A DNA stretch of 64,000 nucleotides. Source: Clostridia bacterium. GTDB taxonomy: Bacteria; Bacillota; Clostridia; Oscillospirales; CAG-272. The translations under genes were made by a program, and so were the position numbers. Every line of letters starts with the position of its first letter. Positions within the stretch are counted from its first letter, which is position 1. The stretch is taken from positions 40,713-104,712 of the forward strand of contig JAFUOY010000022.1 of the NCBI GenBank assembly GCA_017481595.1, read 5' to 3'. Shown one piece after another: positions 4,574 through 63,651 of the stretch. The notes under the pieces are model-generated. The model was not told where the DNA came from and made no database searches. It saw nothing but the letters and a program-made list of their open reading frames with translations.

Positions 4574-6403
4574 ATGTTAAAAGAAAAAATATTCAGAAAC
4601 AAGGGCTTTAAATATACCCCCGAGATATTTTTTAAGACGGTTATATGCTCTTGGTTTTTTACAAGCTTTTTAAATTTCTTGTTTTATGAGAAAAAGTACA
4701 CCGATCTTGCCTTCGTACAGGAGAAAATCTTATATATCGTATTGACGGCGGTCATAATGCTGGTGCTTACTCTTGGCTTAACTGCAATAGAGTATTACTT
4801 GGAGGGAAAGAAAATTACGGAATATTCCTTAATTTTCTCCTTTGTGGCGTTTGCCCTTATGACCTTATACGAGGGTAATGCTGATTTTGGCACCGCCTTG
4901 GCTCTTTGTATAGTCGGCGCCATGGTTGCCGCCTATGCGGTAAACAAGGGATGCTTTGATTTTGGAAATGCGGATATAAATAAAAGAACAAAAATAATAT
5001 ACGTTGCTATTATCACATCTGTTTTTGCATTTGTCCTTGCATCCTACGGAGTTTTGAGATATTGGACCTACAGCGCGCCAAACTACGACTTCGGTATTTT
5101 CTGCCAGATGTATTACAATCTGAGCAAGACCTTGATTCCCAACACCACCTGTGAAAGAGATTATCTTCTTTCCCACTTTGCCGTTCATTTTTCGCCTATT
5201 TATTACCTTCTTTTGCCTGTATATTGGATATTCCCCTTTGCGGAGACGCTGCAAATCTCCCAGGCGGTCATTTTATATAGCGGAATTATTCCATTGCTCC
5301 TTTTGGCAAAGGAAAAGGGTTTAAGCAATAAGTTAAGCGCCGCCTTGACCGTTATTTACTGCGCATATCCCGCCCTTTCTATGGGATGTAATTTCGACTT
5401 CCACGAAAATTGCTTCCTCCTTCCCCTCCTTTTGTGGATGTTCTACTTCTGCGAGAGGGAAAAATATATTCCTATGGCTATCTTTACCGTCCTTGCCTTA
5501 ATGGTTAAGGAGGACGTATTTATATACATTGTGATATACGGCATCTTTCTTATAGCCTCAAGAAGAAAATACAAGCTCGGCTCTATAATGTGCGCAGGGG
5601 CTATTGCATACTTTGTAATGGCGTATACCATCCTTACCAAAAACGGATTGGGCATAATGGATGACTCCCGCTTTGGTAATCTTATATTTGGGGATGGCGG
5701 ACTTGTAGGCGTTGTAAAGACCTTCTTTACAAACCCCGCCTACACCTTATCCCAGATGTTTGTGGACGGAAATAACGGACTTACCAAAATAATCTACATT
5801 ATTGAGATGCTGGGCGCTCTTGCATTCTTGCCCTTCATTACGAAAAAGATGTCAAGATATATTTTGATCGCTCCCATCCTTATAAATCTTTTGTCCGCTT
5901 ACCGCTATCAATGTGAAATCGGATTTCAGTATCATTTCGGAATTACGGCGTTCCTCTTTTACGCTACGGTGCTTAACCTTGCGGATCTTAAGCCCAATCT
6001 GAAAAGATATCTTACTATAGTTGCCGTTATGGTGTCAGTATTTTTGTATGTTGCGGTTTTCTTCCCAAACGTGGGCGGCAGATACGAAGCCTGGCGCAAT
6101 GATAAGGAAATGTACAAAAATCTTGATGAGGTACTTGAAACCCAGATACCCGACGATGCTTCCGTTGCCTGTAACACCTACCTTTTGTCCCACTTGAGCA
6201 ACAGAGAAGAGATATATGAAATTTATTATCACTTTGACAAAAACGGAAACGTAAAGACGGACGTTGACTACGTTGTTTATTTCACACGCGGCGCTATGTC
6301 ACAGAATGAAAAGAACAGTATCCCCCAATTCAAGCAGGCAGGATATAAGGAAATATACAGAGATGACCTTATATTTATTTACGTTAGTCCCGATATGCAA
6401 TAA
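4574..6403 (+). CDS. DUF2079-like polytopic membrane protein
   Basis: 609 aa with more than 10 predicted TM helices. The NYDFGIFCQ and HFSPIYYLL blocks resemble DUF2079. Confidence 0.6.
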   Translation: MLKEKIFRNKGFKYTPEIFFKTVICSWFFTSFLNFLFYEKKYTDLAFVQEKILYIVLTAVIMLVLTLGLTAIEYYLEGKKITEYSLIFSFVAFALMTLYEGNADFGTALALCIVGAMVAAYAVNKGCFDFGNADINKRTKIIYVAIITSVFAFVLASYGVLRYWTYSAPNYDFGIFCQMYYNLSKTLIPNTTCERDYLLSHFAVHFSPIYYLLLPVYWIFPFAETLQISQAVILYSGIIPLLLLAKEKGLSNKLSAALTVIYCAYPALSMGCNFDFHENCFLLPLLLWMFYFCEREKYIPMAIFTVLALMVKEDVFIYIVIYGIFLIASRRKYKLGSIMCAGAIAYFVMAYTILTKNGLGIMDDSRFGNLIFGDGGLVGVVKTFFTNPAYTLSQMFVDGNNGLTKIIYIIEMLGALAFLPFITKKMSRYILIAPILINLLSAYRYQCEIGFQYHFGITAFLFYATVLNLADLKPNLKRYLTIVAVMVSVFLYVAVFFPNVGGRYEAWRNDKEMYKNLDEVLETQIPDDASVACNTYLLSHLSNREEIYEIYYHFDKNGNVKTDVDYVVYFTRGAMSQNEKNSIPQFKQAGYKEIYRDDLIFIYVSPDMQ

Positions 6404-6434
6404 AAAAGAGTTGCCACACGGCAACTCTTTTTTT
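6402..6434. terminator. bidirectional intrinsic terminator
   Basis: AGAGTTGCC-ACAC-GGCAACTCT stem-loop flanked by an A-run and a T-run, between convergent genes. Confidence 0.8.
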
Positions 6435-7347
6435 ACACGAAAATATTTATTATACCGATTACAAATCCAATAAGGGCGCCAAGGTTTATAACCGCGCCAA
6501 GCTCCCTTTTCATAACGGACATACAAAGTTCCTCAAGCTCCTTGACGGACATATCGTTTACCTTGCGCTCAACCACGGAGGCAATATCTATTTTTCCCTT
6601 CAGGGTAGAGAGTGATTTTTTTATTATCACCTCGTAAATTTCTTCGATTTTGTTCTTGATAAGGTCCTTATCTATTTCGTAGCCCTCAAAATACTGTGAA
6701 ATGGGAGTCTCGTACACGCTGCTAAGCTTTTCCTCCGCCTTAAGACGGATAACCTCGCTTCCGTCCGTGTCAATGAATTCGTTTACCTTGTCCTTTAACT
6801 GCTCAAGTAAGGAATTTATCAGCTCGTCGGTGATAAACATACCAAACATTCCGAGGGAGGAGCGCTTTTCTTTGATTACGTCTGCGCCTCTTTCGGAAAT
6901 AATAGCCCCGATATCTATCTCCCTTGCCCCCTCGATTATTTTATCGGTAACAAGGGTGCAGGTTTTGTCCTTTAATTCAAGGGATTTTTCCTCGCTTGTG
7001 ATATTAAGGCTAAGCTCCATAGGAGTTTTTGATATAAGCTCCTCAGCCTTTGCGTATATGGCGTCGCTGACGGTATTCTTTATGTTGTCGGAGATAAGTA
7101 TTTCCTTAAGGTCGTCCTCCGTAAAAAGCTCGTTTCCCACCGCGTTACTGATAGCCTTTGCCAGCTTTGGCTTTCTTCTTGGTATAATACCGGGTGTAAA
7201 TGGGAGAGTAAGACCGAATATTTTTATGGGCTTATATGGGTGAAAAAGCATTTTTACCGCAATAAAGTTTGTAATATAGCCTATCAGAGCGCCGATAAGG
7301 GGTCCCGATATATAATTAAGCACTGTCATAATTTCATTCCAGTCCAT
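6433..7347 (-). CDS. DUF445 family membrane protein
   Basis: The N-terminal GYITNFIAVKMLFHPYKP...PFTPGIIPRRK signature and C-terminal TM helix are typical of DUF445. Confidence 0.75.
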   Translation of the reverse strand: MDWNEIMTVLNYISGPLIGALIGYITNFIAVKMLFHPYKPIKIFGLTLPFTPGIIPRRKPKLAKAISNAVGNELFTEDDLKEILISDNIKNTVSDAIYAKAEELISKTPMELSLNITSEEKSLELKDKTCTLVTDKIIEGAREIDIGAIISERGADVIKEKRSSLGMFGMFITDELINSLLEQLKDKVNEFIDTDGSEVIRLKAEEKLSSVYETPISQYFEGYEIDKDLIKNKIEEIYEVIIKKSLSTLKGKIDIASVVERKVNDMSVKELEELCMSVMKRELGAVINLGALIGFVIGIINIFV

Positions 7348-39941: not shown

Positions 39942-40171
39942 TGCATTTGTAGACACAAATGCATATAGTGAAATATTTTGCTTTGCAAAATGTGAAATAA
40001 TGTTCTGTCGAACATTGTGAAATATCTCGCTCTGCTCGATGTGAAATGAAATAAATCCCCTCACGCCCGCAGGCATTTCACTCGCTGAAAGCGAATTTCA
40101 CACACGAAGTGCATTTCACAAATCCCGTAAGGGATTTATTTCGTTGCGTAGTGTCCTTAAGGGCACTACGC
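39942..40171. repeat. word-hairpin array A (GTGAAAT x4 / ATTTCAC x3-4 with interleaved unique mini-hairpins)
   Basis: Direct reading of the sequence; see findings for coordinates. Confidence 0.8.
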
Positions 40172-56106: not shown

Positions 56107-58134
56107 TTATTTTTCGTATATACAACAGCCCTGTACCTTTGCAACGACGGGGGCAGTATAGGAATCAAAGATAAACAGGGAATACTGTCTTTCCTCCTCA
56201 CCGGAGTCAAGTCTGTAAAATATCTTATTCATTATCTCGTCAATATCCTCGTCACTCGTATCATTTTGGAATCTGATAATAAAGGTGCTTGCAAAAAAGT
56301 CCTCGGTAATTATCTTCTTTACAAGATAGATATGGGTTATTTTACCCTGTCCTACGTTTACAATATGGTCTGTAAGCTCATTTTTAAGATCTTCGTCCAT
56401 ATCGTCAAGGGCAAGATCGTCATCTGGCGAAACGTAGCTTAACTGACTGAAAACGTCTTTTTGCTTTTGCTGTATCTCCACGCTCTTCTCCCGAAATTCG
56501 TCAAGCTCCTTCTGTAATCCCATCATACAAAGGAATTTACCGATAAGCTCAAGCCCTGCATCGATGTAATTGGAATTTTCCTCAATTGCCGTGTAAATAT
56601 CGTCAATGCCGCTCTTGTCGTATTTTAAAAGAAGGGCGTGACCTCTTGACATATAGGCTTCAGCCACGGACGCCTTTGTCTTGCTCCGTTTAATAAGCTC
56701 GTCACTTAACTCGTAAAGCTCATCTACCATACTTAATTTGTGCATCGCGCTCATGATTGGACGCGCCTCCTCAGAGGTAAGCTCTCTTTTGTTTTCGCGC
56801 CATTCGTTCACTATACTAAGGGGCTCAAGATATTCCTCTTTTCGCTCATTTTCGTAGTTGTCCTTGCCATTTTCATATATCTGATTGTCAATACGGGCAA
56901 GAGCTTTTTCAAATTCCCTGCGGTACTCTCCGTCAGAAGGAAGAGGTAATGTGTTAAGCTCACTTACTCCCACAGCCTCAAGTCGGCTGCGCACTATGGG
57001 ATGGGATGCGCTTCGCGCCTGTATTTCAGAAGAAATAAGCTTATTCCAAAATTCCTTTCTTTCGGGCAGCGCTTTGCGAAACGCGCCTAAAAGTATTTCT
57101 ATAACGTTTGGTCTGCGACTTTCGGGCTCGTAGAAATTATCCTTCATATGCATATAAAGCTCGTTAGAGAAATATTCGTTGTAGGCAAGCTTTATAAGAG
57201 AGGATGCGTACGCCTCGGGGTCGCCGTGCTCCAGAATGATCCTGTCGGCTATTTCCTCAATAAGCTGGGAAGAGGTCGTTCTGAATGAAAAATACTCAAA
57301 GGTGTATACAAAATCGCAATAGCGGAACAGCATACTGATTATTTTATTGTATTTTGTATCGTCAGCCTGGGTTATGTAATTAAATAAGCGCTGCTCCTTG
57401 TCCATGGGCTTTGTCGTGTGGGCAAATTCGTGAAGAAGCACCTGGTAAAGCTCCTCCTCCGTAAGTATATCAAGAAGCGCAACGCCAAGCTGGAGAGAGA
57501 ATACCTTACCGATTCTTGCAATGCCCGCATTACAGTCGGCAAGGAACACTATTTTAATTTCACCCTTTATACCAACAGTCTTTTGCGCCTTGTAGGCTAT
57601 GGAATAAATGTGTGGGTAGTCGCTTTCCGATACGTACTCGGAAAAATCGTACTTTTCCCCTGCAAGCTGTATTCTGTTGAAATATCCGATAATTACGTAA
57701 GCGGGGAAAATAGTTATTGCGGGGCTTAATTTACTTATGCCCAAAGCAAATGTGATAAATAAAGCGACAGCAAAGAGGATAAAGGAATACAAGCCAATAA
57801 AAAGGCGTAGGCGTACTATTTTTCCCGTAGCCCTTTCAAGGCTTTTGCGTGCCTCCGCCTGTCTTTCGAGGAAAAGATTTTGAGAGTCGGCAACGCTCAT
57901 ATCAAGCTTTTTCTTGTATCCCTTTGCAAGAAAGTAGTTTAGCGGAAGCAATATTATTGCTATAAAGAGTATCATACCCAAGGCTACGTAGCCCATTACG
58001 TTAACCTGCTCGTCAGTCAGCTTTAATGAGGTAACCGCGCCCAAAGCAAAGGTAAGTACACAAATTATTACGGTAAGGACCACGCGCGGGATGAAGCCCT
58101 TTTCTATGGATTTTTTATTGTTCATATTTTTCAC
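56107..58134 (-). CDS. membrane-bound HEXXH zinc metallopeptidase-like protein (M48/M56-like)
   Basis: N-terminal TM helices, an LLHEFAHT motif and a long helical C-terminal region. Confidence 0.55.
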   Translation of the reverse strand: MKNMNNKKSIEKGFIPRVVLTVIICVLTFALGAVTSLKLTDEQVNVMGYVALGMILFIAIILLPLNYFLAKGYKKKLDMSVADSQNLFLERQAEARKSLERATGKIVRLRLFIGLYSFILFAVALFITFALGISKLSPAITIFPAYVIIGYFNRIQLAGEKYDFSEYVSESDYPHIYSIAYKAQKTVGIKGEIKIVFLADCNAGIARIGKVFSLQLGVALLDILTEEELYQVLLHEFAHTTKPMDKEQRLFNYITQADDTKYNKIISMLFRYCDFVYTFEYFSFRTTSSQLIEEIADRIILEHGDPEAYASSLIKLAYNEYFSNELYMHMKDNFYEPESRRPNVIEILLGAFRKALPERKEFWNKLISSEIQARSASHPIVRSRLEAVGVSELNTLPLPSDGEYRREFEKALARIDNQIYENGKDNYENERKEEYLEPLSIVNEWRENKRELTSEEARPIMSAMHKLSMVDELYELSDELIKRSKTKASVAEAYMSRGHALLLKYDKSGIDDIYTAIEENSNYIDAGLELIGKFLCMMGLQKELDEFREKSVEIQQKQKDVFSQLSYVSPDDDLALDDMDEDLKNELTDHIVNVGQGKITHIYLVKKIITEDFFASTFIIRFQNDTSDEDIDEIMNKIFYRLDSGEEERQYSLFIFDSYTAPVVAKVQGCCIYEK

Positions 58135-58751
58135 CTTTCATATTTTATTTTTGAACTGTCTCCGTGGCCGGAATAGAAGGTTATCTCCCCGTCAAGAGCC
58201 AAAATTTTTGTAAGGGAGCGCCGCATATCGGAGAAGCTACCGTATTTAAAATCCGTCCTTCCGTAGCCGTTTGCAAAAAGCACGTCACCCGTCAGCATAA
58301 GGCTGCTTTCCTCACATAAAAGGCACATAGAACCGGGGGTATGTCCGGGGGCGTGGATGATTTTAAATGAAATTTCGTCCTCCTTCTTCGCCGCGTCAAG
58401 TGTAAGCGTATCCCCGTCCCGCACCGTGAGGTAAGGATGGTCATAGGATCTTCCACTTGAAATAAAGGTAGAAAGATTTGCATCGGGATCGTATAAGACC
58501 TTCAATTCGTCAACGTGGCAAACTATTTTTGCATCGGGAAATGCTTTTGCGTACTCGTCAATATAATGGGCGTGATCAAAATGACCGTGTGTAAGGACGA
58601 TATAAAGGACCCTGTATCCGTTTTTTGTCACAAATTCCATAGCCTGCTGCGGCTTGCACCCGCAGTCAACTATCATTGCGCTCTTTCCCTTGTCGTTATA
58701 AACGACGTAGCTGTTGGAGTCAAGTATACCTCCGTATATCTGCTTTATCAT
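58131..58751 (-). CDS. MBL-fold metallo-hydrolase
   Basis: LTHGHFDH motif and a later HAPGHTPGS block. The start is moved to ATG 58751, after AAGGAGGG. It overlaps the downstream gene by 4 nt. Confidence 0.85.
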   Translation of the reverse strand: MIKQIYGGILDSNSYVVYNDKGKSAMIVDCGCKPQQAMEFVTKNGYRVLYIVLTHGHFDHAHYIDEYAKAFPDAKIVCHVDELKVLYDPDANLSTFISSGRSYDHPYLTVRDGDTLTLDAAKKEDEISFKIIHAPGHTPGSMCLLCEESSLMLTGDVLFANGYGRTDFKYGSFSDMRRSLTKILALDGEITFYSGHGDSSKIKYER

Positions 58752-58866
58752 AATATCCCTCCTTATCCTTAAATTCATTTTACATTATTTCGTACACATA
58801 GTCAAGGATTTTTTTGTAAATCCCTGTTGATGTCTTATTATTGGTACATTTATTTTGCCCGTAATA

Positions 58867-58895
58867 TTGAAAATATAATTTTTGTGTGCTATACT
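58867..58895 (+). promoter_or_regulatory. sigma-A type promoter of the WYL regulator gene
   Basis: TTGAAA, 17-nt spacer, TGc-TATACT. Confidence 0.5.
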
Positions 58896-58926
58896 TAGAA
58901 AAGAATATCTGTAAGGGAGAAAAGCT

Positions 58927-59931
58927 ATGACGCACGAAAACACAAGAAAAATCAAGCTGCTTAAATTATGGGAGCTTTTGAAAAGAGAAACCGACGAAAC
59001 CAACCCTATGGATACTGTGGAGATAATTGATAAGCTTTCTAAAGAGGGCATCGAGGTAGACAGAAAGATACTGTACAGCGATATAGATACTCTGAATAAA
59101 TTCGGCTTTGAGGTGCTTAAGGACAGATCCCGAAGAAACAGATATTACGTAATGGACAGAAGCTTTGATCTCCCCGAGGTACGTATTCTTATGGATGCGG
59201 TACAGGGCTCCGCCTTCGTTACCGAAAAGAAAACGGAGGAGCTTATTGATAAAATTTCATCCCTTGCAGGAAGCAAAAAGGGAGAGATCTTAAAAGAAAA
59301 GGTAGTAAGATTCGGCTCTGTAAAAAGCGAAAACGAAGCCATATTGTACTCCGTTGACACTATTGCCTCGGCTATCGAGCATAAAAATAAGATAAGCTTC
59401 AACTACTTTAATCTTGATATCCGCAGGTCGAAATCTTACAGAATGTGTAAGGATGATCCCACCTTAGTAAGACAGTATAAGGTCAACCCTGTGGCTACGG
59501 TTTTTGCAAACGATCAGTATTATCTCGTGTGCTACGACGATAAGCATACGGGTCTTGCCAACTACAGGATCGACAGAATGGAAAAGGTTAAGGAGCTTGA
59601 TGAGGCTATAAGGGAGAACAAGGAAATTGAGGGAATTGATCTGGCGGAAAGAAACCGTCAGATGTTCGGTATGTTCGGGGGAGAAACGCAAACGGTCTCC
59701 TTTGAAGCAGATAAGACCCTTCTTGACGTAATTTTTGATAAATTCGGCTCCCGGGTGGAAATGTATGAAAACAAGGACGGCAAGCTTATTTGCAAGGTCG
59801 AGGTGCAGACAGGACCTATGTTTATTGCCTGGTGCTGCTCCTTTGATTCCCGCTTAAAGGTAGTGTCCCCTCCCTCCACCGTAAACGCAGTAAAATCCCA
59901 CCTCCAAAAAACCTTGGAGCAATATAACTAA
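58927..59931 (+). CDS. HTH + WYL domain transcriptional regulator
   Basis: N-terminal wHTH and a central WYL-type block (DQYYLVCYDD...ANYRIDRM). Confidence 0.75.
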   Translation: MTHENTRKIKLLKLWELLKRETDETNPMDTVEIIDKLSKEGIEVDRKILYSDIDTLNKFGFEVLKDRSRRNRYYVMDRSFDLPEVRILMDAVQGSAFVTEKKTEELIDKISSLAGSKKGEILKEKVVRFGSVKSENEAILYSVDTIASAIEHKNKISFNYFNLDIRRSKSYRMCKDDPTLVRQYKVNPVATVFANDQYYLVCYDDKHTGLANYRIDRMEKVKELDEAIRENKEIEGIDLAERNRQMFGMFGGETQTVSFEADKTLLDVIFDKFGSRVEMYENKDGKLICKVEVQTGPMFIAWCCSFDSRLKVVSPPSTVNAVKSHLQKTLEQYN

Positions 59932-59932
59932 C

Positions 59933-59963
59933 AAAAATGCGACCACATGGTCGCATTTTTTTT
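59933..59963. terminator. bidirectional intrinsic terminator
   Basis: AAATGCGACC-ACAT-GGTCGCATTT flanked by A- and T-runs. A near copy lies at 63652-63681. Confidence 0.8.
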
Positions 59964-59981
59964 AAATGAAATCTGTATAAA

Positions 59982-60293
59982 TCAGTCTTCCGTTTCTTCT
60001 GAGGGAGGACAAAAGCCCTTTCTTCCACAATTTGGACACTTAGCTATACGTGAGCCGTTAAGATGAATTGTAATATACAAATGGTACCATTTGGGCTTGA
60101 ATTTTGTTTTACATTCCGGGCAAACATATGTTTTAGAAATTATAAAGAGATAAAGCACAACAAATAAAACCGCCACGGGAACGGCAATAACCCACCACGC
60201 AACGTCATATTGCCGATCGAACCAATTTACCTTACAGGAGGTCAAGGAAAGAACCGTAATAAGTATTAGTAAAACAGCTATAAATTTTTTCAT
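59982..60293 (-). CDS. small membrane protein with C-terminal zinc ribbon
   Basis: The start is MKKFIAVLLILITVLSLTSC. A second TM helix follows, then CPECK...CPNCG. The tracked 36-aa extension overlaps the upstream gene and is rejected. Confidence 0.6.
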   Translation of the reverse strand: MKKFIAVLLILITVLSLTSCKVNWFDRQYDVAWWVIAVPVAVLFVVLYLFIISKTYVCPECKTKFKPKWYHLYITIHLNGSRIAKCPNCGRKGFCPPSEETED

Positions 60294-60297
60294 TTTA

Positions 60298-61278
60298 TCA
60301 GTCTCCTTTAATAAAATCAGCAAAGGCTGAGATAACCTCGCTTGGAAAATCTGCCTGAGTATATAATGACGAAGCATCCGTAGTATCGATCTTATACCCA
60401 AAATGGCTTATATCATCATATATGCGTATTGATACGCTTGAAGAATTTGAAAGGTGTGTTGACCATAGATCAAGATCCTTATCAAAGGATTGCTTATCGA
60501 ATTTACTGTTAATTATAAGTGTTTTTATGTTAGCCTCAGAAATATTTTTTATAGTATCTATCTGATTATAGGATGCCCAATAGTAATCGCTTGCGCCGTA
60601 ATAATAGTATCCCTTTGCAGATGAACCAGTTGCGTTTTTGGCAGCCTCTGCATACGTGGTATAAGATACTTTATTGACAGGATCAAGCGCAGAATATTGA
60701 TCGCAGGCAATATCCGCAAGATGCCGCGCGGAGCTGTTAAAAAGTATCATACCGTCAATATCCGCGTTGCTTACGGCAAGCTCGGTGGCAATCTGACCCC
60801 CAAGGCTGTGCCCAAGTAAATACAAGCCCGAAATATTCTGCGACCTTAAATATTCAATAGCGGCAGTACAATCATTTAGGTATTCTTCTTCAATACCGCA
60901 CCTTATATCAAAGTTTGCGGCATAGTTAAAGGTTCTTTTATCCACTCTTAGGGAATTTATACCTTTTTTGGCAAGTCCGTTTGCAATATCCTTAAAGGGC
61001 TTCAATGCGCCGATAGCCTCGTCGTAATCACTTGGTCCGGAGCCTGCAATCAACAAAACGGCGGGATGGGCTTTTCCGTCATCAATATAAGTATAAACGG
61101 CATTTAATTTATATCCGTCACTTTCTAAAACGAAATGCTTTTCCTCAATACTGCTTTGGGGAATGTCCTGATTTGGTATATTTGTCGAGTCCTTCGAGCT
61201 TGTTTCATTTCCGTCAGTATTGCATCCGTAAAGCAAAACGGCGCACAAAAGTAAAATAGCAGCAATAATTCTTTTCAT
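60298..61278 (-). CDS. alpha/beta hydrolase lipoprotein
   Basis: Lipobox LLYGCN and the GHSLGG nucleophile elbow. Confidence 0.8.
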   Translation of the reverse strand: MKRIIAAILLLCAVLLYGCNTDGNETSSKDSTNIPNQDIPQSSIEEKHFVLESDGYKLNAVYTYIDDGKAHPAVLLIAGSGPSDYDEAIGALKPFKDIANGLAKKGINSLRVDKRTFNYAANFDIRCGIEEEYLNDCTAAIEYLRSQNISGLYLLGHSLGGQIATELAVSNADIDGMILFNSSARHLADIACDQYSALDPVNKVSYTTYAEAAKNATGSSAKGYYYYGASDYYWASYNQIDTIKNISEANIKTLIINSKFDKQSFDKDLDLWSTHLSNSSSVSIRIYDDISHFGYKIDTTDASSLYTQADFPSEVISAFADFIKGD

Positions 61279-61283
61279 TTGTC

Positions 61284-61985
61284 TTACCTCGCATTCAGAT
61301 CATAATATCCAAGCCAAAGCCCATCGATTTTACCACCGTGGAATACGTAGGTGATTTTAAGACCAAGCTTTGAAAATCTGACATAGCAATACAGCTTATT
61401 TGAAAACATACCGTCGGCAACTGTTTTATCAATGGAAACAAATTTACCAAGGGGAGATAGTGTATCCTTGCGTACTGCGAGGAAAACGGATCTTGGCATA
61501 TATTCTGTCATGCGGGGACTTAAATATTTATAAAGCGTTTCGTTATCTTCGTTCAAAATAGCATCTGTGCAAATTCGGGCAATTTCTTTTTCCTCAGCAT
61601 TTGTGACAGAAGAAAGCTGCCAATCCTCGGTAAATATATCCTTACCCGATTCAATCACCGATAAGGCTTCATTTAAAAGATTGATTTCACGAATACGGGA
61701 ATCAATAAAAGCGTATATTTCCGCGCGCTTGGAAAGAACGGCGTCCCTTAAGTCAGTTCCCTTGGTTTGCAATTCCGAAATTGATTTTACGGACAATCCC
61801 AATGCGCGAAGAATAAGAACGTTTTTGATATTGGAAATTTGTTCCTCCGTATATTGCCTGCGGGATGAAATTCCAACTGTGGTGCTTTGAATAATACCCT
61901 TTTCTTCGTAAAACCGAAGAGTCCTTGACGTTGTGCCAAGCATCCTGCAAACCTCTGCAATATCGTATAAAGAATTCTGATGCAT
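61284..61985 (-). CDS. MerR family transcriptional regulator
   Basis: YDIAEVCRMLGTTSRTLRFYEEKGII HTH. Confidence 0.85.
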   Translation of the reverse strand: MHQNSLYDIAEVCRMLGTTSRTLRFYEEKGIIQSTTVGISSRRQYTEEQISNIKNVLILRALGLSVKSISELQTKGTDLRDAVLSKRAEIYAFIDSRIREINLLNEALSVIESGKDIFTEDWQLSSVTNAEEKEIARICTDAILNEDNETLYKYLSPRMTEYMPRSVFLAVRKDTLSPLGKFVSIDKTVADGMFSNKLYCYVRFSKLGLKITYVFHGGKIDGLWLGYYDLNAR

Positions 61986-62125
61986 ATACTCACCCCTTTC
62001 TATATTGTATCATATCACTTGACGTTGCGTCAATGTCAAGTCAAAATGAAAAATAAATTTGGCGTACCTGCAAAACAAGTACGCCAAATCCATTTTTACA
62101 TATAAATCAATCATATCAGTAAAAA

Positions 62126-63544
62126 TTACAGCATTATTTTATTAAATTCCGTAGGATAATGGATCTTATACCACATAAGGGTTAGCGCTATCCTTGTATA
62201 AGTCACACCGTGAGCCTTAGGAAACAAATATGCGATCTTGCAAATAGATTCAATAAACCAATCCTCCGCGCCAATTGATTTCAGTCCGTTCTTAACGCTA
62301 TCGGGCATGCCGTTGTTGCAATATATACCCCTACGCGTGTCCTCCATTACCTTGTAGGCAAATCCCGTATCGGCAGATCCCTTGTCGGTTATCCTTTTCT
62401 GTATATAGTTGAATACGTCGTCACGATATGCGACAAGGTTTACTATAGAGTGACCGTTTTCGATAAGCTTATTTCCGTTATTAAGCCAAACGTTTGTGCC
62501 GTGGGCAAAGCCCGAGATCTGTATCAGCTCGCAATAGGATGCGGGAGAGATCAAGCGTAACATATTTTTCATAAAGTCACTCTTAAAATCACTTATTCCG
62601 TCGGTATTGCATTTGCGAAATTCCTCTGAAATTTCCTCGGAGATAAATGGTATTCTTTCAAAGGAGGTAGCCGTCTGGCGCTCCAATTCTCTGTAACGTC
62701 GGAATTCCTCGTTAACGCAAAGGGTTACCGAGCACTTGGATTTTTCTGATATAACCTCGAATCCGGTTATTTTGTTTGGTTCAAATTCTTCCTTTGTGAT
62801 TTTATGATCCTTAAAATAATCCAAAATAAATTTTGTTGCCAAGGGAAGATATTCGAAAGATACTGATATATTAAAGCTTGTGTTTCGATGCACCACGTGT
62901 CGATACGTCTCGAAGGGAATGTTGTGCCCATCCGTGCGCATTGCTTTTCCACAGGAGCAGCTTCTTCCTTCAAGATCCCATCCGTCCTTAGCGCTATCAT
63001 CAAATATAACTGCGTGACATTCGGGACAGTAATAATGCGGCTTTAACGGGTTTACATCCGTTGCTCCCAAAAGATAGGCAACGAAGGACGCCCCCGCTCC
63101 GCCTCGCACGCAAATATGCTCCCCTTGCCTTCTTGCATCCCTTGTAAGAGCAGAGAGCATATCAAAATATACTATCATATCCGTGTCCTGCATTTCTGCC
63201 TGCTCGGTTAAAAATCTGTTTGTAATTTCAATAGGCGTATTATCCCCATATAGTTGGCTTATTTTGTCATACGTCTTTTTCCATAATTGCTTTTTCATTG
63301 CAAATACTCCTTTATTGTCCCTTTTTTCAAGGGAATTATATTTGCAAGTCAGTAGCTCGTCAACGCTGATCTCAAGCACCTCACTGAGCTTAAATAAAAT
63401 ACTGCTTTTCGGCTTGGAAAAGCCGTTTTCCCATTTTGAAACCGCCTTGTCGGAAACGCCGACGAGCGCGCCGAGCTGATACTGCGTAAGGCCTCGCAGC
63501 AGTCTCAACTCATGCAGAAAATTACAAAAACTATAGTCCCTCAT
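62126..63544 (-). CDS. XRE HTH fused to a truncated PolC-like (PHP/Zn-finger/palm-remnant) region
   Basis: The N-terminus is [26 protein letters not shown]. PolC-like blocks follow: [28 protein letters not shown]...[36 protein letters not shown]. Confidence 0.7.
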   Translation of the reverse strand: [472 protein letters not shown]

Positions 63545-63651
63545 AACATCCTCCGTCTGCTTGCTGATTAAATTATATCATTCAATGCGTATTCCTTCAA
63601 TAGGGCACATATCTACCTGCGGTAGAAATTTTGTTTTTACTGCGTGTGTAC

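Follow-up and report, generated by a model that had tools for sequence, protein, structure and literature searches.

What does a DNA-binding helix-turn-helix (HTH) do in front of a polymerase core of the replicative type? The replicative polymerases of the C family count as housekeeping enzymes with a purely catalytic task, and the question is raised by a single gene in a 64,000-nucleotide stretch of DNA, hereafter the window, from a Clostridia bacterium (GenBank assembly GCA_017481595.1, contig JAFUOY010000022.1, positions 40,713 to 104,712). The gene lies at 62126-63544 on the minus strand and encodes a protein of 472 amino acids (aa), which a list of open reading frames (ORFs) and Pfam, NCBIfam and PDB matches define as an XRE HTH followed by a dead core of the polymerase PolC (palm, zinc module and fingers). 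An earlier inspection of the letters alone (the sequence-only reading) had proposed that a PolC remnant without catalytic aspartates serves here as the sensor or oligomerisation module of an HTH factor. In this study, we describe the architecture of the protein and the loss of its catalytic residues, the purifying selection acting on its family, and the palindrome and promoter that are conserved in front of the gene. The reading that we favour, with moderate confidence, is an autoregulated one-component transcription factor in which a dead polymerase core has been exapted as the effector domain.

A helix-turn-helix joined to a PolC core without catalytic aspartates

The protein belongs to the XRE HTH family. 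Residues 10-64 (63353-63517, minus strand) match Pfam HTH_3 (PF01381) over profile positions 1-55 of 55, with 54 bits against a gathering cutoff of 23 (E 1.7e-14), and family alignments and Foldseek matches agree with this assignment. In a model built with AlphaFold2 (AF2) from the family alignment, helices at residues 6-16, 21-28, 32-39, 47-57 and 61-65 form the five-helix Cro/C1 fold, with structural matches to the DNA-binding domains of P22 c2, C.AhdI and ImmR (Foldseek; target-normalised template-modelling score, TM, of 0.8-0.9). Family alignments further reveal that the recognition region of the HTH is nearly invariant throughout the family of proteins with this length and architecture, which we call the short form. 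The cutoffs of phage repressor subfamilies were not reached, with 47 bits against 80 for RstR (NF041951) and 30.5 against 101 for DicA (NF007257), both over the HTH only; PHROGs and PADLOC returned generic HTH and DNA-polymerase matches and no link to a defence system.

The remainder of the protein derives from PolC. Its closest PDB matches are the PolC structures 9QPC from E. faecium (phmmer, E 2e-54) and 3F2B from G. kaustophilus (E 1e-48), which it matches in two blocks, residues 86-216/244 and 307-465. When a profile of 104 short-form members was compared with one of 16 PolCs (hhalign), a single colinear alignment onto PolC residues 817-1296 of 1444 was obtained, with a probability of 100% and an E value of 3.7e-68. 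Pfam places DNA_pol3_alpha at residues 86-214 and DNA_pol3_finger at 289-370, both above their gathering scores, and the PolC motifs NPLxPHYxCxxC, DGxxIPFE, HGT..W, RDD, ME..R.G and Y.FPKAH are recognisable. The AF2 model has a mean predicted local distance difference test (pLDDT) of 91.2 and a predicted TM (pTM) of 0.81; its nearest structures are PolC (Foldseek, E 1e-23 to 1e-24, query TM 0.72) and then DnaE-type polymerases. We regard the protein as a homologue of PolC and not a member, because the defining features of PolC that we tested were not found in it; its matches to the NCBIfam PolC equivalogs (NF001688 / TIGR01405), for example, are highly significant and yet score 244 and 237 bits where the cutoffs are 873 and 1043.

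The PolC-derived region can be divided into four parts, all on the minus strand. The N-terminal part of the palm occupies residues 86-244 (62813-63289; phmmer to 9QPC 853-986 and to 3F2B, hhalign and a motif table) and carries a degenerate G[GS] loop, VRGGAGAS. Within it lie a Cys4 zinc module at residues 165-212 (62909-63052; ..CSCG...DGHNIPFE), supported by cysteine conservation, and a dead catalytic motif, S223-F224-N225 (62870-62878), in place of the D-I-D of PolC. Residues 245-306 (62627-62812) form a compact beta/alpha segment that stands in for about 160 PolC residues, as judged from hhalign gaps, mafft columns and the AF2 strands, which are modelled at residues 248-277 with a pLDDT of about 83-97. 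The proximal fingers follow at residues 307-472 (62129-62626; phmmer to 9QPC 1166-1322).

Much of PolC has no counterpart. The N-terminal, oligonucleotide-binding (OB), PHP and exonuclease domains are absent from the 472-aa protein, in which Pfam finds neither PHP nor RNase_T and whose alignment begins only at PolC residue ~817. Internally, the largest gap spans about 100 residues, PolC ~992-1095, which to judge by the PolC structure presumably make up the thumb and some of the palm; the flanking strands remain aligned (hhalign). The protein then stops at PolC residue ~1296 of 1444, so that the distal fingers, clamp-binding motif, helix-hairpin-helix and C-terminal domains are absent. Most of what the sequence-only reading had said of the protein is borne out by these comparisons: every peptide string that it quoted is present in the ORF, its canonical XRE HTH at residues ~10-65 coincides with the Pfam match, the likeness to PolC that it described is recovered by profile alignment and by the predicted structure, the PDB matches cover the PolC strings that it named, and the PHP, exonuclease and C-terminal domains are missing as it had said. 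Its statement that most of the palm is missing was too strong; the palm is merely reduced.

The catalytic residues themselves are gone. The sequence-only reading had noted the loss of both aspartates of the PolC DxD motif, and alignment to 3F2B with HMMER confirms it: PDIDLNFS reads TSFNISVS here, placing S223 and N225 at the two positions. The third catalytic aspartate (KLD in PolC) aligns to T274 or to a gap (mafft column mapping, hhalign). Of 166 short-form sequences, 49% have Ser at the first DxD position and just 56% have Asp at the second. Could the protein nevertheless be a residual enzyme, a minimal polymerase or nucleotidyltransferase with alternative catalytic residues? The nucleotidyltransferase-type palm sheet, which AF2 predicts with high confidence, and the frequency of Asp at the second DxD position would favour this. 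However, the carboxylate positions here are S, N, T or a gap, the family as a whole conserves none of the three triad positions, the serines of the GS loop are lost, and the presumed thumb and the DNA-holding regions C-terminal to the proximal fingers are absent. We therefore consider residual activity highly improbable.

What has been retained is as informative as what has been lost. Of the columns that never vary in PolC, 108 have a counterpart in the alignment with the 472-aa protein. At least 80% retention is found in 39 of them, namely the zinc module, H348, W353, R374, D376, R404, G406, Y439, F441 and P442, and 34 are lost, comprising the GS-loop serines, the DxD strand and the strand of the third aspartate. 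The zinc module is the best-conserved part of the PolC-derived region; its cysteines (C173, C176, C196 and C198) are conserved at 99-100% in the short form (n=166), in PolC and in a group of relatives without the HTH, and at 95% in longer HTH-bearing relatives (both described below). In E. faecium PolC, the nucleobase and inhibitor pocket is formed by H1185, Y1274, F1276, H1280 and Y1284 (PMC12592400). All five equivalents (H348, Y439, F441, H445 and Y449) are present here and are 60-93% conserved in the short-form family, and H348, R404, Y439 and F441 are retained at 85-93%, above the 75th percentile of family conservation. The half of the active site that handles metal and triphosphate is thus lost, and most of the face that packs on the nascent base pair is kept.

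A family under selection and the palindrome at its promoters

The gene is not an isolated oddity. More than 100 clusters (at the 90% identity level) share its length and architecture and are 48-97% identical to the window protein; more distant short-form members reach down to 36% identity (L016, for example), and a profile search of 1.8 billion cluster representatives yielded dozens more 50%-identity clusters. The hosts are Clostridia of the gut and rumen that have not been cultured (Oscillospiraceae, Acutalibacteraceae, Ca. Flemingiibacterium and Acetatifactor). Between members that are 74-93% identical, the ratio of nonsynonymous to synonymous divergence (dN/dS, Nei-Gojobori) is 0.09-0.18 overall and 0.05-0.2 for each PolC-derived segment, demonstrating that the PolC-derived regions are under purifying selection.

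These data bear on the simplest alternative, that the gene is a decaying fragment of a disrupted polC or an artefact of assembly or annotation. The protein does cover only about one third of PolC and lacks the catalytic residues, as such a fragment would. Against this, the identical protein occurs on five contigs (one of them metagenomic, 124 kb long) and hundreds of homologues have a like length and architecture, dN/dS is ~0.1, and the reading frame is intact and equipped with a ribosome-binding site (RBS), promoter and terminator. In addition, tblastn with a full PolC and with one of the longer relatives finds only 62126-63544 in the window; the flanking polC pieces that the sequence-only reading had named as evidence against itself are not there. 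The pseudogene explanation, which we consider barely credible at all, is refuted by the intact signals, the conservation, the selection and the absence of other polC pieces. The proposal of a PolC remnant kept as a non-catalytic module of an HTH factor is strengthened by the same data.

One feature of the divergence concerns the HTH itself. At the HTH-coding 5' end (the first ~200 nt; window equivalent 63341-63544), synonymous divergence in L006, L007, L008 and L010 is 0.2-0.36, compared with 0.4-1.6 in the two large PolC-derived segments. This suggests either constraint at the nucleotide level or gene conversion between paralogous HTH cassettes.

Transcription of the gene would start from a sigma-70-type promoter (63572-63600, minus strand), identified by a consensus scan, with a -35 element TTGAAG at 63595-63600, a 17-nt spacer and a TG-extended -10 element TATAAT at 63572-63577; the positions of both elements are conserved in 12 aligned promoters. 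Between the promoter and the coding sequence lies a short 5' leader (63545-63571, minus strand), AATCAGCAAGCAGACGGAGGAtgtt, defined by the sequence and a 12-locus alignment, with the RBS GGAGG at 63550-63554. The leader between the -10 element and the ATG, AATCAGCAAGCAGACGGAGGA, is conserved well past the RBS in the 12 loci, and the region may hold a second protein-binding or RNA-level element. A terminator scan places a strong intrinsic terminator at 62050-62096 (minus strand), 30 nt past the stop codon, with a hairpin of up to 20 pairs (G-T allowed; 5-6 G-C pairs depending on the variant) followed by a T-rich tail. Since the gene has its own promoter and a terminator directly after its stop codon, it is monocistronic.

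Upstream of the promoter we identified a candidate operator from the sequence and from comparison of loci, a perfect 15-bp inverted repeat TCTACC-N3-GGTAGA at 63612-63626 (no strand assigned), of which this is the only exact copy in the window. It ends 11 nt upstream of the -35 element, and its centre is ~54 nt upstream of the predicted transcription start. In 16 homologous loci (13 of which were aligned at first), whose proteins are just 36-65% identical to the window protein, the palindrome begins 77-82 nt before the ATG, without mismatch in most of them and with 1-3 mismatches in the most divergent. Apart from these mismatches the half-sites are invariant, and the 3-nt spacer (GCA, TGC, TGT, GTA, GCC or GTC) varies, as do the flanks. 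Such a conserved palindrome fits the near-invariant recognition region of the HTH across the family. A scan had flagged the palindrome as a terminator on the plus strand. We rejected this, as it is the sequence and not the pairing that is conserved, the stem has only 6 bp and no plus-strand gene precedes it. Matches to the pattern TTTCTACCNNNGGTAGA in viral and metagenome contigs were likewise rejected as regulon sites: among the matches listed (at least 120 per collection), 0 of 240 loci had an HTH gene downstream, and the matches come from unrelated environments and are regarded as chance.

The palindrome is not confined to genes with a PolC-derived domain. Using HTH peptides we retrieved 80 loci, mostly of HTH-only relatives, and in a set of 68 genes fetched solely for HTH resemblance and bearing other C-termini, the core TCTAC-N5-GTAGA lies upstream of 22 (32%), compared with 2% of control windows. 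The palindrome TCTACC-N3-GGTAGA itself precedes the XRE genes at L021 3326-5191 and L022 1985-3850, whose soluble C-termini of ~520 residues have no Pfam match and may, as a tentative impression, resemble a glycosidase, and those in L044, L047, L077 and L085, whose C-termini are polytopic membrane domains. As the palindrome is shared by related HTHs with differing C-termini, the HTH and its operator constitute a cassette of a broader XRE subfamily, as yet uncharacterised, which the cassette delimits. The PolC-derived domain would then be one of several alternative effector domains carried on this shared cassette.

Relatives of the PolC-derived module and their genomic settings

Two further groups of proteins share parts of this architecture. 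The first consists of long forms of 900-1005 aa with HTH, PHP, palm, thumb and fingers, known in databases only as 'PHP domain-containing protein'; a single cluster of these holds 1338 member sequences. Their HTH is 52% identical to that of the window protein over residues 1-88. They have no exonuclease, clamp motif or C-terminal domains, and the PHP HxH motif is mostly HxR. About 80-85% retain the DxD motif and the third aspartate, and P0215 and P0263 have lost both; most long forms may therefore be active. Besides these two, members include P0178, P0184, P0222, P0273 and those at L087-L091 (P0271, P0275). The palindrome TCTACC-N3-GGTAGA was not found at long-form promoters; L087 and L091 have a common conserved upstream element of another sequence, CTCTACTTTCCTTCGATA.

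The second group, roughly 40 clusters of HTH-less mini-PolCs of ~404-447 aa, has the same internal deletion as the short form. P0402, for example, is colinear with residues 85-471 (27% identity, E 2e-49), and its fingers motifs are further decayed. All three HTH-less genes that we looked up (P0402, P0387 and P0390) lie downstream of a gene for a 1206-aa Phage_P4_cII/DUF8437/ResIII (SNF2-type) helicase, usually with DnaB_C-, DnaA- or FtsK-like genes nearby, and P0390 is near integrases and an S24 repressor. The HTH-less gene is at 6001-7300 in each of L332, L333 and L334/L335, preceded by the helicase gene and by one or two ORFs for which neither Pfam nor PHROGs gives a match. To judge by its gene content, this setting looks like the replication module of a mobile element, of which the mini-PolC would be a candidate new accessory protein.

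Rare fusions were also observed. P0175 (510 aa) has an N-terminal FtsK-gamma-like winged helix, P0431 (429 aa) a HATPase_c domain, and P0009 (663 aa) joins a sigma70_r2 region to the short form, perhaps through the merging of two genes in gene calling. A neighbour-joining tree without an outgroup and an identity matrix (identities 0.30 vs 0.27) are compatible with descent of the short form either from a long HTH-PolC or directly from PolC. The related forms resemble stages of a transition, from HTH with a PolC of intact triad, through HTH with a PolC of dead triad, to the deleted dead core with or without the HTH.

These relatives raise the possibility that the window protein is itself a replication or mobile-element factor, in which the HTH tethers a PolC look-alike to DNA in order to recruit, mimic or block components of the replisome; it might be an origin-like tether, or a decoy that draws off PolC-targeting proteins. 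The closest HTH-less relatives, colinear and with the same deletion, do sit in conserved replication-like modules, and long HTH-PHP-PolC forms exist, mostly with intact triads. Three observations nevertheless make this improbable. The HTH-fused form occurs in variable chromosomal contexts without mobile-element genes; the one DNA site conserved with it belongs to its own promoter and keeps a constant spacing to the -35 element; and the known partner-binding regions of C-family polymerases (the clamp motif, the tau-binding C-terminus and the PHP/epsilon surface) fall outside the retained PolC 817-1296.

In the loci examined, the short form has no conserved neighbour and no signature of a mobile element, and its contexts are varied and ordinary chromosomal ones (TrkAH/MerR, NUDIX/DtxR, NAD synthase and FolC). 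In the window, the downstream neighbours are genes for a MerR_1 regulator with a long C-terminal domain (61284-61985), a Hydrolase_4 lipoprotein (60298-61278), a WYL regulator (58927-59931), a metallo-beta-lactamase (MBL)-fold hydrolase (58131-58778), a 675-aa membrane protein with an HExxH motif (56107-58134) and a small zinc-ribbon membrane protein (within 56107-61985), none of which is conserved beside homologues of the HTH-PolC gene. On the 124-kb contig that encodes the identical protein, the upstream genes are TrkH and TrkA, and those downstream are MerR, Hydrolase_4, WYL and MBL-fold genes. The sequence-only reading was right about MerR and hydrolase genes nearby, but the AT-rich islet in which it placed them does not exist, as the gene has a GC content of 42.4% and the window a mean of 42.6%. 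Its suggestion of a prophage or plasmid context holds for the HTH-less relatives with their mobile-element modules, and finds no support in the settings of the HTH-fused form.

Two observations from the surroundings stand apart. XRE HTH_3 proteins of 379-388 aa adjoin the short-form gene in two unrelated loci (L001 9544-10683; L339 8443-9603 and 9981-11147), and no exact or 1-mismatch palindrome was found upstream of these adjoining genes. The sole Rfam match in the window is a Gut-1 RNA (RF01706) at 40070-40146 on the minus strand, with 74 bits against a gathering score of 50, which is consistent with a gut-associated organism.

The proposed effector domain and its place among known regulators

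How might such a protein work? We propose that the XRE HTH, presumably dimeric, binds TCTACC-N3-GGTAGA at its own sigma-70-type promoter, and probably further genomic sites too. The C-terminal 390 residues would be a copy of the PolC core that is unable to polymerise, consisting of palm, Cys4 zinc module and proximal fingers, and would supply dimerisation, signal binding or both, and in this way control occupancy of the operator; the sign of the regulation and the nature of the signal are matters of conjecture. Our preferred guess, of low confidence, is recognition without turnover, with a nucleobase- or nucleotide-like compound or a DNA end as the ligand of the module. We lean towards a ligand of the nucleobase type because the side of the cleft that contacts the base pair (H348, R404, Y439, F441 and H445) is kept and the side for metal and triphosphate is destroyed. 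A strict sensor of deoxynucleoside triphosphates (dNTPs) was also considered and has been downgraded, given the loss of the GS-loop serines and of all metal ligands.

Several observations weigh against this proposal. PolC needs a primer-template to bind nucleotides or inhibitors, and the primer-template is held by the thumb and the C-terminal DNA-binding domains; the thumb, at its inferred position, and the C-terminal regions are absent from the 472-aa protein. The serines that hold the triphosphate are gone from the GS loop, which argues against strict dNTP sensing. The pocket residues are conserved at 60-93% and not at ~100%, and are lost in the distant L016 and in the HTH-less P0402; their retention may reflect structural inertia and not the binding of a ligand. 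With regard to the operator, a palindrome centred at about -54 matches neither the classic position of a repressor site nor that of an activator site. There is also no second palindrome in the window or in the homologous loci of ~10-20 kb, and a regulon beyond autoregulation is for this reason unproven.

Some of these points would be accommodated if the PolC-derived domain were a mere scaffold, the dimerisation domain of an ordinary XRE autorepressor, with neither a ligand nor a sensing role. Some element for dimerisation is required in XRE regulators, and the candidate operator is a symmetric palindrome; the structural zinc module and not the cleft is best conserved, cleft residues decay in distant members, and the HTH/operator cassette is joined to quite different C-termini. 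Yet a two-domain module of 390 residues, held at a dN/dS of ~0.1 throughout, is large for a simple dimeriser, and H348, R404, Y439 and F441 of the cleft are better conserved than three quarters of the family's positions. In addition, we know of no dimerisation of PolC through the regions retained here. We consider the scaffold explanation rather unlikely, though it deserves real weight.

A more ambitious version of the sensing proposal is that these proteins are the first recognised lineage of inactivated C-family cores, of which the HTH branch acts as a 'target-mimic' sensor and the HTH-less sister as an accessory of mobile-element replication. We regard this as doubtful. If it were true, the factor would read replication chemistry through its relic PolC cleft, be it nucleobase or nucleotide analogues, PolC-directed inhibitors or exposed primer ends. 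BlaR1 would be a comparable case, as it senses beta-lactams via a domain derived from the family of the drug's target.

Whatever the signal, the favoured reading of an autoregulated factor with an exapted core implies that in a large family of gut and rumen Clostridia, maintained by selection, a PolC core has been turned into a non-catalytic module of a transcription factor. The candidate operator makes the factor directly accessible to experiment. Should nucleotides, PolC inhibitors or DNA ends prove to be what the module senses, it would represent a new type of sensor. It would then also matter for antibiotics aimed at PolC, such as ibezapolstat, whose site of action is the gut, the habitat of the hosts.

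We found nothing relevant in the literature on HTH-PolC fusions, on pseudo-polymerase regulators or on the operator sequence. A 2013 survey of bacterial polymerases removed fragments without an intact active site, a 2026 survey discarded truncated or divergent sequences (PMC12926913), and neither mentions HTH fusions or inactivated C-family members. Inactivated polymerases of other families, namely ImuB and iPolY of the Y family and PolX variants with dead sites, are listed in the 2026 survey (PMC12926913). They resemble the window protein in that a polymerase fold has stayed under selection after catalytic loss, but they act in repair or translesion-synthesis complexes and have no fusion to a transcription-factor HTH.

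Among its own relatives, the window protein shares with PolC (3F2B, 9QPC) the palm, the Cys4 zinc module, the proximal fingers and the fold, and differs in having gained an HTH and lost the catalytic aspartates and the other domains. The long forms have a homologous HTH, occur in the same Clostridia and similarly go without exonuclease and C-terminal domains, whereas they keep the PHP domain and the stretch missing from the short form. The HTH-less mini-PolCs share the internal deletion, the colinearity and the zinc cysteines, and differ in the missing HTH and in their mobile-element context. The closest functional parallels would be regulators with exapted enzyme-like effector domains, such as the ROK repressors, the MocR/GntR-aminotransferase proteins and BlaR1 with its sensor resembling a beta-lactamase or penicillin-binding protein. 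Like the one-component regulators of this kind, the window protein has an N-terminal HTH, a large C-terminus with an enzyme fold dead to catalysis, a palindrome at its own promoter and a single-gene unit. It differs from them in the donor of the fold, which here is the catalytic core of a replicative polymerase, a donor for which we found no precedent in the literature.

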